Below, in pieces: positions 54,004-59,322 of a DNA stretch of 64,000 bases. Numbering within the stretch: position 1 is the stretch's first letter; each line of letters starts with the position of its first letter. This DNA is from Fidelibacterota bacterium 408169 (GTDB taxonomy: Bacteria > Fidelibacterota > Marinisomatia > Marinisomatales > TCS55), in assembly GCA_002256485.1 (NCBI GenBank), contig NNSG01000001.1, positions 64,017 through 128,016 on the forward strand, in the 5' to 3' direction. The notes under the pieces were generated by a model. The model worked only from the letters and a program-made list of their open reading frames with translations. It ran no database searches and had not been told where the DNA came from. Made by a program: the position numbers and the translations under genes.

Positions 54004-54585
54004 ATGAAAAACATGACAGAAAATAAGGAAAATAATTTTCACGACAGTATGGTCAGAAGCAATATTGCTCCCATTTTTCACATACTGCAAAGTGAGCAGC
54101 AAATTCTCATGCGAACGGACCAGAAAGCATTTACACTCCTATCTATTTTGGGTGTGTTTATGGTCTTTTTTATTATTCATTTTTTAAAAATTCAAATGGA
54201 TTGGTTACGTTTTATTCTGGTCATCGTTTATTTTATAGCTGCATTTATGGCGATTGTATATTTAGTCCTTGTTATAGTACCGAGAGTTAGAACGGCTAAG
54301 GTTAAAGAAGATAATCCTGAAATAAATGCAACATTTTTTGGAGGAATAAGTCAATTTTCTACTGCTGATGAATATGCGAATTATTTATTAGAAATTGCGG
54401 GAGATGAAACAAAAACATACAATATGTTTGCTTCACAAGTTTTTGCTCTAGGTAAGATCAATAACTATAAAAATAAAAACTTGAAACAAGCTATTTTGTT
54501 TTTTGCATTAGCAATTATGTCTGAACTCTTTATCATTATGTCCATGGCATGGGGAAGGGCGCTGCCTTTTCTTTTTCCGGGATAA
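54004..54585 (+). CDS. Pycsar effector-like (DUF5706/PycTM) membrane protein
   Basis: [17 protein letters not shown]...FFGGI...EY...SQVFALGKI...[10 protein letters not shown] pattern. Confidence 0.8.
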
Positions 54586-55109
54586 TGAAACATTTCCTTT
54601 TAATATCTGCTGTCCTCTGGTTTGGGTGTGCCACTCCTGGACCACAGGGCCCTCCCGGCCCACAGGGTGAACCCGGAGCACCCGGTAAGCAAGGATTGCC
54701 GGGCAAACAAGGAAATTCGGGAGAACCGGGACTACCCGGTAAAGTGGATCCTTCTTTAATAGAGAAATTAGAAGACGCACTTAAAGGAGGTCTCAACGAT
54801 GAGAAAAAAGAAAGTATTACTGCGTCCGTTCATTATTCATTTGGCATTGCACCGCCTTCCATGGGTTTTGCAATTATGACGAATCATGGAAACATCTATC
54901 AATTGAAAAATAAAAATCCAGTTACAATGGGAGATAATTTTGAATTTCTAGTGCGAGTCGCTGAACATGATGATTTTGTTTCACTCTCTTTTTTATCGGG
55001 CGGAGAAGGGCAAAAACATTTTTATATGGCCATAAGTGAAAGTGGGAAATCTTATGTATCCGAAGACCTTAAAAAATGGTCATATAAAGGTGAAATCCCT
55101 TTAAAATGA
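54585..55109 (+). CDS. Collagen-repeat lipoprotein
   Basis: Lipobox LWFGC then 12 consecutive G-X-Y triplets (54639-54746); start set at ATG 54585. Confidence 0.85.
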
Positions 55110-56854
55110 TTTGTAAAACCGCATTCCTCGCGGTCATTATTTCCAGTTTTATTTATGCCGGTCATCCCATTTCAATCGATGGTTTGTTTGAAGATTGGGA
55201 CAATGTACCATTATCTTACCAGGATCAAGAAGGTGATATGAGTTTGGGAATGGTTGACTTTGCTGATTTTAAAATCACCTACGATAATGAATTTCTGTTC
55301 ATTTATTTTTCAATTTATTCCAATGATTTTCTTCTTCAGGATAACAATTCAGTCAATTTATATATTGATGCGGATAATGATTCCACTACCGGTCATTATT
55401 ATTTTGGACTCGGTGCAGAATTGCATTGGGAATTTGGGCAGCGAAGCGGTACACATTATGTGGCTGACGGTATTATCCCTGTGGAGCACAGAGATATAAC
55501 ATTTCGGTCTTCACCCACCATCACCTCCCAGGAGTTTGAGATCTGTATTGCACGTGACAGTTATGCTCTTCAATCAGAATACTCCGAAGAGTTAGTGGAA
55601 GGGAGGATCGTCATCGCAGAATCACCGCCTAATTCAGATTTTTTACCGAATGAACCGGGAGGTGTACCATTTTATATAGGAGAGGATCTGATCCCTGAAC
55701 CGATTCCCATTTCGTTTGAAAAACGCCATGATGATGATATTCGCTTGGTGAGCCATAATGTATGGAGTTCTGCACTGATTAATGATGATTATCAGGAACA
55801 CTTTCGCAGAATTTACCAGTCGTTAAATCCGGATATTGTCGTACTCCAAGAAATGTATGAAAATACAAATCAACTCCACAGTTTATTCAATTCCTGGTTT
55901 CCCGATGAGCAATGGTATGTAAGCAACCAATTTAGGGATAATATCATTATATCGAAATATCCGGTTTTGGAGCAGAACTTTTTTACATCATCAGAAAGAA
56001 CCATGGTTTCACTATTGGATACTGAAGATGAATTGGGTAAAAATTTAATAATTTTTAATTCTCATTTAGCCTGTTGTGATAACGATGAAAGTCGCCAGTA
56101 TGATGCGGATGAATTTGTATCCAATTGGAGGGAATGGCGCAATAATGATAATGGACCTTTTACCTTAGTAGATAGCACACCATTTGTTCATGTTGGAGAT
56201 TTTAATTTAGTTGGAAATCGCCAACAACTAACTACTCTAACCGAGGGAGATATTGAAGATGAAAATGTGTTTGGAGACGATTATGCTTTAGATTGGGATG
56301 GGACACCCATTGCGGACTTGTTTTCCAGGCATTCTCATAAGCGGATGGGTTATACTTGGCGATATGATTACAGTTCTTACAGTCCCGGAAAACTGGACTA
56401 TATTTTATATTCCGATAGTGTCATTGATACGTCCAAGCATTTTGTTTTGAATACATTGACAATGGATTCTACATCTTTGTTATTTTATGGTTTGGATCCC
56501 ATGGACAGTTATAATTCATCAGACCATTCTCCAAGAGTGTTGGATATTAAAATCCCGGATAATGTAGGAATTGGCTCGTCTATTATTCCAAAATCTATTA
56601 AAATTTCAGCGCCCTATCCCAATCCTTTCAATCCTCAAACCATGATACAAATAGAATTAGATCAAAGTACATATTTACAAGCAAACGTATATGATATCAA
56701 TGGTCGCTTTGTAAAGAAGCTTATTGAAAAAGATTTTCAAAGTGGAAGACATGAAATAAAATTCAAAAACAATGGTTTGACCAGTGGAATTTATTTTATT
56801 AAAATTCAAAATGTTGAAATCCAGCGAACATTAAAAGTGGTACTCTTAAAATAA
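55106..56854 (+). CDS. Secreted endonuclease/exonuclease/phosphatase with C-terminal T9SS/FlgD-like sorting domain
   Basis: VSHNV, DIVVLQE, HVGDFN, KLDYI, SDH; C-terminal PYPNPFNP...VYDINGR...GIYFIK. Confidence 0.88.
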   Translation: MICKTAFLAVIISSFIYAGHPISIDGLFEDWDNVPLSYQDQEGDMSLGMVDFADFKITYDNEFLFIYFSIYSNDFLLQDNNSVNLYIDADNDSTTGHYYFGLGAELHWEFGQRSGTHYVADGIIPVEHRDITFRSSPTITSQEFEICIARDSYALQSEYSEELVEGRIVIAESPPNSDFLPNEPGGVPFYIGEDLIPEPIPISFEKRHDDDIRLVSHNVWSSALINDDYQEHFRRIYQSLNPDIVVLQEMYENTNQLHSLFNSWFPDEQWYVSNQFRDNIIISKYPVLEQNFFTSSERTMVSLLDTEDELGKNLIIFNSHLACCDNDESRQYDADEFVSNWREWRNNDNGPFTLVDSTPFVHVGDFNLVGNRQQLTTLTEGDIEDENVFGDDYALDWDGTPIADLFSRHSHKRMGYTWRYDYSSYSPGKLDYILYSDSVIDTSKHFVLNTLTMDSTSLLFYGLDPMDSYNSSDHSPRVLDIKIPDNVGIGSSIIPKSIKISAPYPNPFNPQTMIQIELDQSTYLQANVYDINGRFVKKLIEKDFQSGRHEIKFKNNGLTSGIYFIKIQNVEIQRTLKVVLLK

Positions 56855-57177
56855 TGAGTGCACATTCAAAAATCGTTTTTTCTACGAATTCTGATTTTCA
56901 GCATGAAGAAGAAAAAACGTTAGAAACAGTCTCTAACGAACATCAGCAATTACGAGTCTGGCTTAAGCGTTTAGGCGGGGGAAGGGTCGTTTCTTTGGTT
57001 AAAGGATTTATTGGAAAAGAAGAAGATTTACAATCACTGGGGAAACTATTAAAAACAAAATGCAGCTCGGGCGGAACAGTTAAAAATGGTGAAATTCTCA
57101 TCCAAGGTGATCATCGGGATAAAATTGTGAACTTTCTCAATCAAAAAGGATATAAAGCAAAAGCCAGCGGAGGATAA
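56854..57177 (+). CDS. yciH: SUI1/YciH translation initiation factor
   Basis: GGGRVVSLVKGF, LKTKCSSGGTVKNGEILIQGDHR. Confidence 0.93.
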   Translation: MSAHSKIVFSTNSDFQHEEEKTLETVSNEHQQLRVWLKRLGGGRVVSLVKGFIGKEEDLQSLGKLLKTKCSSGGTVKNGEILIQGDHRDKIVNFLNQKGYKAKASGG

Positions 57178-57221
57178 TAAGAATCTTCCTGAATAAACTT
57201 AAACCTATCTAAATTCAAAAT

Positions 57222-58409
57222 ATGAAAATGATAAAAAATACATTATTATTAATTCTTGGAATCAGCTTAACGGGCTGCGGAAAACCGGCAAAAACCGGTT
57301 TTGTAACCATGATGGTAACTGCAAACGTTCGTGCCCAACTTGACCCCTGCGGCTGAAAAAAGAATCCCCTGGGCGGTCTGTCCAGGAAGTCAGTTATTGT
57401 AAATAATTACCGTAAGGAAAATGGTCATGAACCCATTATTCTTGATGCCGGAGATACCTTTTTTGCATCAGCCATTTTAGCCAATCGCAATGCAGAAGGT
57501 GACATGCTTCAGGCAAAAGGCTTATTACAGGGATATGAAAAAATTGGATGTGATGCTTTGAACGTAGGTGGATTTGATCTTGCAGCAGGTAAAGACTTTT
57601 TAATGTCACTTGCTGAAGGATCATCTATACCATTTATTTCTGCAAACTTAACAGATAGGGATAATAATCTTCTATTTCCGGAATTTACAATTGTAGAAAA
57701 TAACGGATTTAAAATTGGTGTTACAGGTGTGAGCGATCTTATTCCCGATCATATAAAAGATGTCAAAAAACGACCTTACATCGAAGCGGCCAAAAATGTG
57801 ATAGAAGAAATGAAACCCCAAGTGGATTTTGTTGTTTTATTAGCAAATGTACATCGTAAAAAGAACAAGGAATTGTCGCAAAATTTTCCGGATGTTGATT
57901 ATATATTTGTAAGTCGAAATACACAGCGATCACGACCGGAAACAAATCAACCTGAAGGTGGTCCTTATGTATATTCGAGCGGTAATCAGGGGAAATACTT
58001 AACTGTCGTTGATATTGCATTAAATGATCCAAGTCAACCAATAATGGACATTTCTGCAGCTAAAGGAAAAATATCATCCATTTCCAGGCGGTTGAAAAAA
58101 TTGCAGGAAAAAGATCCAAGCAAGACGATAGAAGAAATTTATTTCGATAAACCCAATGTGCTTAAACTGGTAGGTGACTATCGTGAACAATTGGTCAAAT
58201 ATGAATCAATCATGGCTGATGCAATTAACACAACAAAATTTCATAGTGTTGCTCTCAGTAAAAGTGTGGGTGAAGATTCTGAACTTTTGGCATTTGTAGA
58301 TGAAACATTAGCTACATGTTCAGCTCTCCGCAAAAAACCTATCAAGTCTACTAAAAATCTCATCAAACCTAAAACAGGCCCAATCAAAAAGAAGTTCAGC
58401 ATAAACTGA
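57222..58409 (+). CDS. UshA-like selenoprotein (395 aa lipoprotein, Sec at codon 45, TGA 57354-57356)
   Basis: Lipobox LTGC; frame is continuous through ...LDPCG-TGA-KKNPLGGLSRK...LDAGD into the ORF-track 57504 protein; SECIS follows the TGA. Confidence 0.9.
57368..57386 (+). promoter_or_regulatory. Bacterial SECIS element
   Basis: CCTGGGC-GGTCT-GTCCAGG 7-bp stem starting 11 nt after the UGA; GGUCU apex as in the E. coli fdhF SECIS. Confidence 0.88.
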
Positions 58410-58411
58410 TT

Positions 58412-58876
58412 ATGCTCCGCGTTCCACTAAATCAAATGCTGGCGATTGTTATCCTTTCGATTATAGTCGGAATTTTTGTAAATATTTTACGATCTGATAG
58501 TATTCCACTATTAGCTAAAGAAATCGCAATAGCTGAAGACCTTGATGTAGTTTTCGGTGAACCTGTTGCAATTACTTTAGATCAAGCAAAAAATTTATTT
58601 GATGAAGGTGTCATTTTTGTTGATGCAAGAGACAATGAATATTTCATAGATGGTCATATACCAAACGCTTGGAATAGCGGTTTTTTCATGGAGTTAATGT
58701 TTAAACTGGATTCAGCACAGACTAAATCAGGCCCTGTTGTGTTGTATTGCAGCGATGATGAATGTGGTTCCAGTGAAGAATTAGCGAATGATTTATACAA
58801 TGAAGGATTTACAAAGCTATACGTATTTAAAGGTGGTTGGCTGGAATGGGAAGCAGCAGGTTATCCGGTAGAATGA
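58412..58876 (+). CDS. Membrane-anchored rhodanese-domain protein
   Basis: N-terminal TM; FVDAR...GHIPNA...LYCSDDECGSS...FKGGWLEW. Confidence 0.9.
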   Translation: MLRVPLNQMLAIVILSIIVGIFVNILRSDSIPLLAKEIAIAEDLDVVFGEPVAITLDQAKNLFDEGVIFVDARDNEYFIDGHIPNAWNSGFFMELMFKLDSAQTKSGPVVLYCSDDECGSSEELANDLYNEGFTKLYVFKGGWLEWEAAGYPVE

Positions 58877-59322
58877 AAAATGAATTAAAAAATGCATTGG
58901 TATTATTTTGCCGTGTTGTCCTTGGGATAATGTTTATTTATGCCAGTTTGGATAAGATTGCTCATCCGGAAGAATTTGCCAAGCAAATTGGATTTTATAA
59001 AGTACTTCCCTTTGGAGTGGAGAACATTTTAGGAATTGTATTACCTTGGACAGAGTTGATCGTCGGTATTTGTTTAATAACAGGATTATTAGTTGATGGT
59101 GCAGCATTATTGAGTATTATAATGATGTTGGTGTTTATTTTAGCTATTTCACAAGCAATGCTTCGAGGTATCGATATTACATGTGGATGTTTTAAAGTCA
59201 GCGCTGATAGTGAAAAGTTGGGATTGGATATAATCATACGTGACATAATTTTTCTTGTAATGAGCTTCATTGTACTAAACCGCCAGGAAAGAAAGTTTGA
59301 ATTCCTACCAAAATCCGATTGA
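58873..59322 (+). CDS. MauE/DoxX-family membrane protein
   Basis: RVVLGIMF, LPWTELIVG, RGIDITCGCF, IIRD; ATGA overlap with the rhodanese gene. Confidence 0.88.
   Translation: MKNELKNALVLFCRVVLGIMFIYASLDKIAHPEEFAKQIGFYKVLPFGVENILGIVLPWTELIVGICLITGLLVDGAALLSIIMMLVFILAISQAMLRGIDITCGCFKVSADSEKLGLDIIIRDIIFLVMSFIVLNRQERKFEFLPKSD

Follow-up and report, generated by a model that had tools for sequence, protein, structure and literature searches.

The DNA analysed here is a stretch of 64,000 nucleotides (nt) from Fidelibacterota bacterium 408169 (contig NNSG01000001.1, positions 64,017 to 128,016 of the forward strand), referred to below as the window, and it belongs to a genome of 2.47 Mb in 48 contigs that is 95% complete. 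Located in it is a gene for an UshA-like protein that very probably contains selenocysteine (Sec, U), followed by genes for a rhodanese-domain protein and a MauE/DoxX-family membrane protein (Table 1). The frame of the UshA-like gene starts at ATG 57222 with MKMIKNTLLLILGISLTGC, a hydrophobic signal that has the lipobox L-T-G-C at its end (Cys19 at 57276-78) and from which lipidation of the protein is predicted. It continues through ...VRAQLDPCG, an in-frame TGA (57354-56) and KKNPLGGLSRK..., and meets its next stop only at the TGA at 58407-09, which gives 395 codons when the internal TGA is counted as residue 45. In the list of open reading frames (ORFs) made with translation table 11 the gene appears only as two pieces in the same frame, one of 44 amino acids (57222-57356) and one of 301 amino acids (57504-58409). 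A preliminary description of this DNA had given these coordinates, the lipobox, the in-frame TGA and the continuation into the ORF at 57504, and all of them were confirmed from the sequence. Its wording of a 'hidden' selenoprotein stands insofar as the table-11 ORF caller does not see the gene, but the gene is hidden from such a caller only, and the family is already catalogued.

Table 1. Features of the UshA-like locus and of its neighbours (window positions).
Feature	Position	Strand	Basis and remarks
UshA-like coding sequence, predicted selenoprotein	57222..58409	+	frame open with TGA read as U; NF041198 match at residues 17-378; AlphaFold2 model; 5'-nucleotidase fold
Predicted lipoprotein signal peptide, lipobox L16-T-G-C19	57222..57278	+	sequence; hydrophobic N-terminus and Cys are the majority state in the 72-sequence alignment
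Putative active-centre motif C43-G44-U45 (TGC GGC TGA), candidate Sec codon 57354-56	57348..57356	+	C43 and U column invariant, 72/72
Predicted bacterial Sec insertion sequence (SECIS) hairpin	57368..57386	+	stem 57368-74/57380-86, loop GGUCU 57375-79; minimum-free-energy structure, covariation, invariant GGCGGTCT, fdhF-like spacing
Metallophosphoesterase motif II remnant D75-A-G-D78	57444..57455	+	between the TGA and the ORF-list start at 57504; D75 and G77 invariant, 72/72
SUI1/YciH gene, upstream	56854..57177	+	Pfam PF01253; upstream in 52/81 loci
Rhodanese-domain protein, 154 amino acids, N-terminal membrane anchor, loop Y-C-x4-C-x-x-S	58412..58876	+	PF00581, 2e-14
MauE/DoxX-family membrane protein with C-G-C	58873..59322	+	PF07291, 1.5e-29

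The state of the TGA column in homologues bears directly on how this codon is read. A search of 5.8 billion proteins returned 256 matches, all named sources of which are Marinimicrobia. Most of these public entries are called at 300-350 amino acids and begin past the TGA, at the first Met after it, while eleven aligned entries of 356-406 amino acids (among P0034-P0071) span the column and all carry Trp there. The contig behind one of them was located, and the frame there can be translated only if TGA is read as Trp; the Trp in the Sec column is most simply explained as an artefact of gene callers that apply a code-4 model (TGA=Trp) to short contigs. The column was also read in the DNA, at 80 genome loci plus one (L102) that was added for the count of stops. 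A stop occupies the column at 72 of these loci, 70 from Marinimicrobia/Fidelibacterota (including a second paralogue with DPCG*PKKP), one from KSB1 and one from Polarisedimenticolia, and it is always TGA and never TAA or TAG, whereas the terminal stops of the same genes vary between TGA, TAA and TAG. In other relatives the column holds Cys, as in Lentisphaerales (LEPCGC), Nitrospina (LKPCGC), Sumerlaeales (VDPCGC), one further metagenome-assembled genome (IDPCGC) and the Marinimicrobia lineages g8, f19 and f24; two deltaproteobacterial relatives have PC(L/M)TC. Alignment of homologues, a check that the preliminary description had proposed, thus shows precisely this column to be occupied by Sec (TGA) or Cys, and both C43 and the U/C45 column are invariant in all 72 aligned homologues. 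A sequencing error for TGC or TGT, which had been named as a possible refutation, was rejected, as the TGA recurs at all 72 TGA-bearing loci in independent assemblies.

The distribution of the two states within the phylum follows whether Sec machinery is present. Scanning 151 genomes of the phylum with the NCBIfam model NF041198 gave a match in 140 (94 of the 96 high-quality genomes), and most of the best matches contain exactly one in-frame TGA. Best matches with no stop occur in some lineages, including a genus with genomes of 0.8-1.1 Mb; of seven such loci that were read, six have Cys (YDCGCPKAPLGGLARK; LEPCGCRIPAGGLPRR) and one has a CxxC motif. The selA gene was found in none of the 12 genomes checked from no-stop lineages and in all 7 of those checked that have the TGA form, and three genomes combine selA with a no-stop form, so that the presence of selA tracks the Sec or no-stop state in 19 of the 22 genomes checked. 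A Sec/Cys pattern that follows the machinery in this way, as seen on the sequences compared, is the mark by which true selenoproteins are usually recognised. The genomes of this streamlined genus (G024, G035, G071, G079, G087 and G143, of a single order and 0.8-1.1 Mb in size) lack selA and have an orthologue without in-frame stop, and the loci read in three of them (G024, G071 and G079) show Cys in the Sec column and relaxed hairpin codons. The clean change from Sec to Cys in lineages that have lost selA neatly illustrates how a selenoproteome is lost as genomes become streamlined.

Both sides of the TGA also evolve as protein-coding sequence. Among eight orthologues with 61-91% identity, substitutions at codon positions 1/2/3 amount to 9/9/47% for residues 20-44, 15/10/40% for residues 46-94 (the gap between the two pieces in the ORF list) and about 24/16/49% for the remaining protein. 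By this measure, the sequence on either side of the TGA is protein-coding in this frame, and nowhere else in the gene is the constraint as strong. Only seven columns are invariant across the 72 aligned sequences (C43, U/C45, G51, G52, D75, G77 and S140), four of which (G51, G52, D75 and G77) lie within residues 46-94. Because both flanks are coding and residues 46-94 hold these four columns, the reading of the locus as two ORFs or a pseudogene is excluded. A true stop, which would leave either a pseudogene or a lipopeptide of 44 amino acids followed by a protein of 301 amino acids from ATG 57504, is what the table-11 ORF caller delivers, and most public homologues are called at a similar length; it is nevertheless given very little probability, since the family's most conserved residues lie between the TGA and ATG 57504, in a segment that evolves as coding sequence, the stop is kept as TGA at every locus that has one, and relatives have Cys in the column. 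Even less probable is that TGA is a sense codon throughout this genome (Trp or Gly, as in codes 4 or 25) and that residue 45 is not Sec, a reading favoured by the eleven database entries with Trp but opposed by the use of TGA to end both this gene and the adjacent rhodanese gene (the stop of the latter overlaps the next start in ATGA), by terminal stops that are exchanged among orthologues where the internal one never is, by the complete Sec system of the genome, by the presence of Cys and not Trp in the column of relatives, and by a spot check of neighbouring genes that found no in-frame TGA at their Trp or Gly columns.

Decoding of a bacterial UGA as Sec involves a hairpin in the coding sequence just past it, and a candidate for this element lies 11 nt (AAAAAGAATCC, 57357-67) after the TGA. 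The arms CCTGGGC and GTCCAGG enclose the loop GGTCT and form 7 base pairs (bp), one of them G-U, in the minimum-free-energy fold of the region; the 7-bp stem with a GGUCU apex described earlier is thus present as stated. The loop sets in 18 nt past the UGA, which is within the range of 16-37 nt given for bacterial SECIS loops (PMC10778597). Pairing was counted on distinct homologous segments of 48 nt, of which 66 align with no indels and 64 enter the pair count. Of the cells in this helix 88% are paired, a share that falls to 27-53% if the 3' partner is shifted by 1-3 columns, and the covariation score of 0.228 (0.117 in shuffles) was reached by none of 500 shuffles. The pair 21-33 is realised as GC (40), AU (10), GU (7), UA (4) and CG (3) and is never unpaired; since both of its columns fall on the third position of a codon, for Leu/Met in one and Ser/Pro in the other, this complementarity is not forced by the protein. 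The conserved element across the phylum consists of the inner 5 bp and the loop, and the outermost two pairs are often unpaired. Loop and closing pair, GGCGGTCT (GGC GGT CT, encoding Gly-Gly-Leu), are invariant in all 66 distinct Sec forms of Marinimicrobia, synonymous sites included. The Cys forms provide a control: in 14 such genes Gly-Gly is kept and Leu usually so, but the codons are free in 12 of them (e.g., GGA GGA TTG, GGT GGG TTA, GGG GGC CTG) and only two retain GGC GGT CT(G/T). Because the Gly-Gly-Leu codons are frozen in Sec forms and free in Cys forms, the constraint at the nucleotide level is tied to the UGA rather than to the protein. The reading of the hairpin as a SECIS, made before from its position and apex, is in line with the bacterial rules and with its covariation.

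The machinery that such a hairpin would serve is present in the host genome. A tRNA-Sec scores 64.6 bits, above the Rfam cut-off, and is assigned the anticodon TCA by ARAGORN; selB (358.7 bits) adjoins selA (517.5 bits) on contig 48 of the genome, and selD (405 bits) is located at G000:C47:44127-45053, outside the window. The prediction that selA, selB, selC and selD would be encoded elsewhere in the genome was thus borne out for all four. The selD gene has a TGA of its own, in frame and at the classic position (SHGSG*ACKIG), and selenophosphate synthetase is therefore itself a selenoprotein here. A genome-wide scan for an in-frame TGA followed by a hairpin with a GGT[CT] loop returned the UshA-like gene and two matches that translate to nonsense; as the Sec codon of selD escaped this pattern, the scan is too narrow to list the selenoproteome. 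In the mechanism that these data suggest, SelB carrying Sec-tRNA(Sec) would be recruited by the hairpin within the ORF and UGA 57354-56 would be decoded as Sec. The homologues, the hairpin and the machinery together make it very likely that 57222-58409 is one gene with a Sec-containing product of 395 amino acids, which is what the preliminary description had proposed.

Assignment of this product to a family came from NCBIfam and from a PDB profile search, not from Pfam. A Pfam search of the full protein found no significant family, Metallophos included. In NCBIfam, the best match is NF041198 ('UshA_like_PCGU, UshA-like (seleno)protein'; 2.9e-61, 207.6 bits, residues 17-378; 200.8 bits in a six-frame search of the genome), an equivalog model of 519 positions with a curated cut-off of 275 bits. 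The match includes the P-C-G-U motif and the N-terminal and middle part of the model (positions 12-390 of 519), and the rest of the model, from about position 390 to 519, is a multihaem cytochrome c domain that is absent from the window protein, which has a short basic tail instead and no CxxCH motif in its 395 amino acids. Among the 151 genomes scanned in the phylum, the cut-off is exceeded in just one. Relatives from KSB1, Polarisedimenticolia, Lentisphaerales and Nitrospina (L093, L094, L096 and L097) are longer (439-493 amino acids) and have four CxxCH motifs each; in the two of these haem-fused relatives in which the best stretch shows the end, the NF041198 match reaches profile positions 518-519, and one scores above the cut-off. 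For L094, from Lentisphaerales, a match to Pfam Cytochrome_C554 was confirmed. Another NCBIfam model, NF049981 (UshA_like_Sel_2, with CxxU), gives only 28.8 bits against a cut-off of 140, the motif of the window protein being C-x-U. Weaker similarity is found to the NCBIfam models of UshA (6.9e-12) and SoxB (7.2e-13), and a profile search of the PDB finds 1ush (9.7e-16).

The predicted structure agrees with this distant relationship. An AlphaFold2 model made from the alignment of 72 sequences has a mean predicted local distance difference test score (pLDDT) of 91.6 and a predicted template-modelling (TM) score of 0.86, and Foldseek places it closest in the PDB to CD73 and to UshA of E. coli (E about 1e-18, TM 0.52-0.60). 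With E. coli UshA and human CD73 (PDB 1ush, 6xue) the modelled window protein shares the fold of the N-terminal metallophosphoesterase domain, and it retains motif II (D-x-G-D). Of the UshA profile, only positions 12-206 are included in the alignment, and the Foldseek alignments with UshA extend over about 280-300 columns. At the aligned positions, D41-x-H43 of motif I in UshA corresponds to N35-V-R37 in the window protein and to N/S-x-H/R in the family, where position 35 is Asp in 2 of 72 sequences. The G-D of motif II is present as part of D75-A-G-D78, and position 78 is Asp in 63, Glu in 6, Asn in 2 and Gly in 1 of the family members. In motif III (G-N-H-E), N116-H117 of UshA is replaced by G117-F118 (G-G-F-D), the family having a variable residue followed by Tyr or Phe; and the His positions of motifs IV and V appear as N209 and N233 in the window protein, and as Asn and Ser/Asn in the family, in an alignment extended by eye. 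P-C-G-U is an insertion directly past motif I that UshA does not have, and the C-terminal nucleotide-binding domain of UshA is absent, the protein ending at residue 395. Judged from these alignments, the scaffold is a 5'-nucleotidase N-domain without most of the canonical metal site: the residues that bind metal or act in catalysis in UshA are missing from motifs I and III at the aligned positions, and probably also from motifs IV and V, and the protein is probably not a nucleotidase. The genome has a second, distant UshA-like gene (G000:C12:92163-92912, L115) with an open frame of 467 amino acids, no TGA and 24% identity; it probably encodes a conventional phosphoesterase, as judged from the His-containing motifs THQGHD and VGSHSQ, which are kept.

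Indications of function come from the genes next to the UshA-like gene. The rhodanese gene begins 2 nt past the stop of the selenoprotein gene, and the ATG of the MauE/DoxX gene overlaps the stop of the rhodanese gene (ATGA). In tblastn comparisons of 81 loci, with selenoprotein identity down to 34%, SUI1 was found in 52, the rhodanese in 53 and MauE in 51, and at one locus (L088) the rhodanese and MauE genes have moved upstream together. The Y-C-x4-C-x-x-S loop of the rhodanese and the C-G-C of MauE are invariant in all syntenic orthologues, and the C-G-C is placed in a periplasmic loop when the positive-inside rule is applied by hand. Two of the four haem-fused relatives (L094 of Lentisphaerales and L097 of Nitrospina), both Cys forms, show a different arrangement: they have no rhodanese-MauE pair, and the 3' end of their UshA-like gene is overlapped by a gene for a thioredoxin- or DsbA-like protein (L094:5329-6030 and L097:4239-4916). 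Further upstream in the window, on the same strand, lie an ORF of 193 amino acids with the Pfam domain PycTM (Pycsar effector transmembrane protein, 3.4e-16; 54004-54585) and, at 54549-56854, an ORF of 186 amino acids with collagen triple-helix repeats followed by an Exo_endo_phos protein of 582 amino acids with a type IX secretion C-terminal sorting domain; a gene of the latter type is found upstream of SUI1 in 28 related loci.

These observations suggest that the C43/U45 pair works with the rhodanese and the MauE/DoxX protein as a redox relay, a reading that is put forward tentatively and with somewhat less than even confidence. In this relay, the protein would be lipidated and face the periplasm, and its C43/U45 centre would cycle between the selenol/thiol and the selenenylsulfide, or carry sulfane sulfur, while exchanging electrons or sulfur with the membrane-anchored rhodanese (through C-x4-C) and the MauE/DoxX protein (through C-G-C). 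In the long-form relatives a fused tetrahaem cytochrome c domain would take the place of the rhodanese-MauE/DoxX neighbourhood. Taken further, a dedicated envelope chain for selenol/thiol redox or sulfane transfer may be formed by the UshA-like selenoprotein in its haem-less form, the rhodanese with its C-x4-C and the MauE/DoxX protein with its C-G-C, built on a catalytically dead phosphoesterase scaffold and present in most of the ocean phylum Marinimicrobia, the catalytic domain being wired to a fused tetrahaem cytochrome in other phyla; this wider proposal is also tentative, and to be held with reserve. If it is correct, the family would be a new kind of periplasmic oxidoreductase, the substrate of which is perhaps a sulfur species.

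Several results weigh against this interpretation, in its selenoprotein part or in its functional part. Folded alone, the hairpin does not differ significantly from shuffled sequence (z = -0.79), and for this reason the case for it rests on comparison; a permissive Rfam scan of 57200-57500 gave chance matches only, and no curated model fits the SECIS. The 207.6 bits of the 395-amino-acid protein do not reach the NF041198 cut-off, a shortfall that is due to the absence of the C-terminal multihaem domain. The mapping of the metal ligands was made by profile alignment to UshA at about 18% identity and by column counts, and what speaks for the relay is gene neighbourhood and residue conservation only. 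Finally, there is a second P-C-G-U paralogue in Marinimicrobia that does not have rhodanese and MauE neighbours, and the relay is therefore not obligatory for every member of the family. This paralogue (DPCG*PKKPLGGLSRK) has an identical SECIS apex and occurs in many Marinimicrobia (L060, L064, L068, L070, L072, L074, L078, L086, L089 and L090), at L064 after a giant immunoglobulin-repeat surface protein; no second PCGU copy was found in the window's own genome.

Two other functions are compatible with Sec at position 45. In the first, the module would handle sulfane sulfur or selenium rather than electrons, C43/U45 receiving persulfide, polysulfide, thiosulfate or selenide from the rhodanese. 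The rhodanese domain is a constant partner, the nearest NCBIfam model of it is NF041203 ('rhodanese-related (seleno)protein'), and relatives of DoxX belong to thiosulfate:quinone oxidoreductase; however, the loop of the rhodanese (YCSDDECGSS) is an unusual acidic C-x4-C without the basic residues that are typical of sulfurtransferase loops, and in two haem-fused relatives the partner gene is thioredoxin- or DsbA-like and no rhodanese gene adjoins. Such a transfer is thus regarded as unlikely, about one chance in a few. Slightly less likely still is that the protein is a hydrolase (for example, a SoxB-like thiosulfohydrolase or a nucleotidase) with Cys43 and Sec45 as metal ligands of a remodelled site. 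In favour of it, formate dehydrogenases and [NiFeSe] hydrogenases use Sec to bind metal, D75 and G77 are invariant, D78 is nearly so, and N114, N142 and N209 are highly conserved; the weak similarity to SoxB and UshA points the same way. Against a hydrolase stand the replacement, at the aligned positions, of Asp in motif I and of Asn-His in motif III and the apparent replacement of the His positions of motifs IV and V, the failure of Pfam to detect Metallophos, and the absence of the C-terminal domain by which 5'-nucleotidases bind their substrate; the tetrahaem domain or thioredoxin-like neighbours of relatives point, moreover, to electron transfer. Metal binding and sulfur or selenium transfer are alternatives to the redox relay, but the two roles need not exclude each other.

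The redox relay, as the preferred reading, concerns a family that has been known for some time. A 'COG0737, UshA-like, CxU' selenoprotein family with 76 Sec and 92 Cys sequences was reported from the Global Ocean Sampling data (PMC2398784), and reviews of selenoproteomes list the UshA-like family under NF041198 (PMC9312934, PMC13188914); no function is assigned to it in any of these papers. The statement of the preliminary description that UshA-like proteins with C-x-U are a known but functionally uncharacterised selenoprotein class agrees with PMC2398784, PMC13188914 and NF041198. What is added to these catalogue entries is the spread of matches over the phylum (140/151 genomes), the replacement of the phosphoesterase ligands and the operon with rhodanese and MauE/DoxX. 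No description of the operon association or of the ligand loss in the UshA-like CxU family was found in the searchable literature, and a search of the literature on MauE, DoxX and rhodanese found nothing relevant. The gene is mis-called almost everywhere: present in nearly all high-quality Marinimicrobia genomes, it is usually recorded without its active-site segment. For a family catalogued since 2008 without an assigned function, the ligand loss, the invariant columns and the operon or haem fusion provide a hypothesis that can be tested at the bench, and they point to a cell-envelope selenol/thiol redox enzyme in a highly abundant uncultured ocean lineage.

Compared with known systems, the window protein appears to be an ordinary member, in a haem-less short form, of the UshA-like CxU family (Zhang & Gladyshev 2008), with no defining difference. 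Homology to UshA, the C-x-U motif, Sec or Cys in one column and marine origin are common to both, and the features of the family that sequence can show are all found here, i.e., UshA homology, C-x-U with TGA, Cys homologues, a SECIS, and selA, selB, selC and selD in the host. Its hairpin resembles the SECIS of E. coli fdhF; a literature search for the 11-nt rule of fdhF gave no direct quotation, and the fdhF sequence itself was read (TGA, 11 nt CACGGCCCATC, then GGTTGCA-GGTC-TGCACC): the likeness that had been pointed out before is real, with the same 11-nt spacing, the same location within the ORF and GGUCUG (GGTCTG in the DNA) at the apex. Unlike fdhF, the loop has 5 nt (GGUCU) closed by C-G, and not 4 nt (GGUC) closed by A-U, and its upper stem lacks a bulged U. 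As to the operon, the MauE-MauD and DsbB-DsbA pairs offer an analogy, as they likewise consist of an integral membrane protein with a conserved Cys pair and a redox-active periplasmic protein with two Cys, encoded beside the presumed client. In the candidate relay, the periplasmic partner would differ from these pairs in being a rhodanese domain instead of a thioredoxin fold, and the client would offer Cys-x-Sec.

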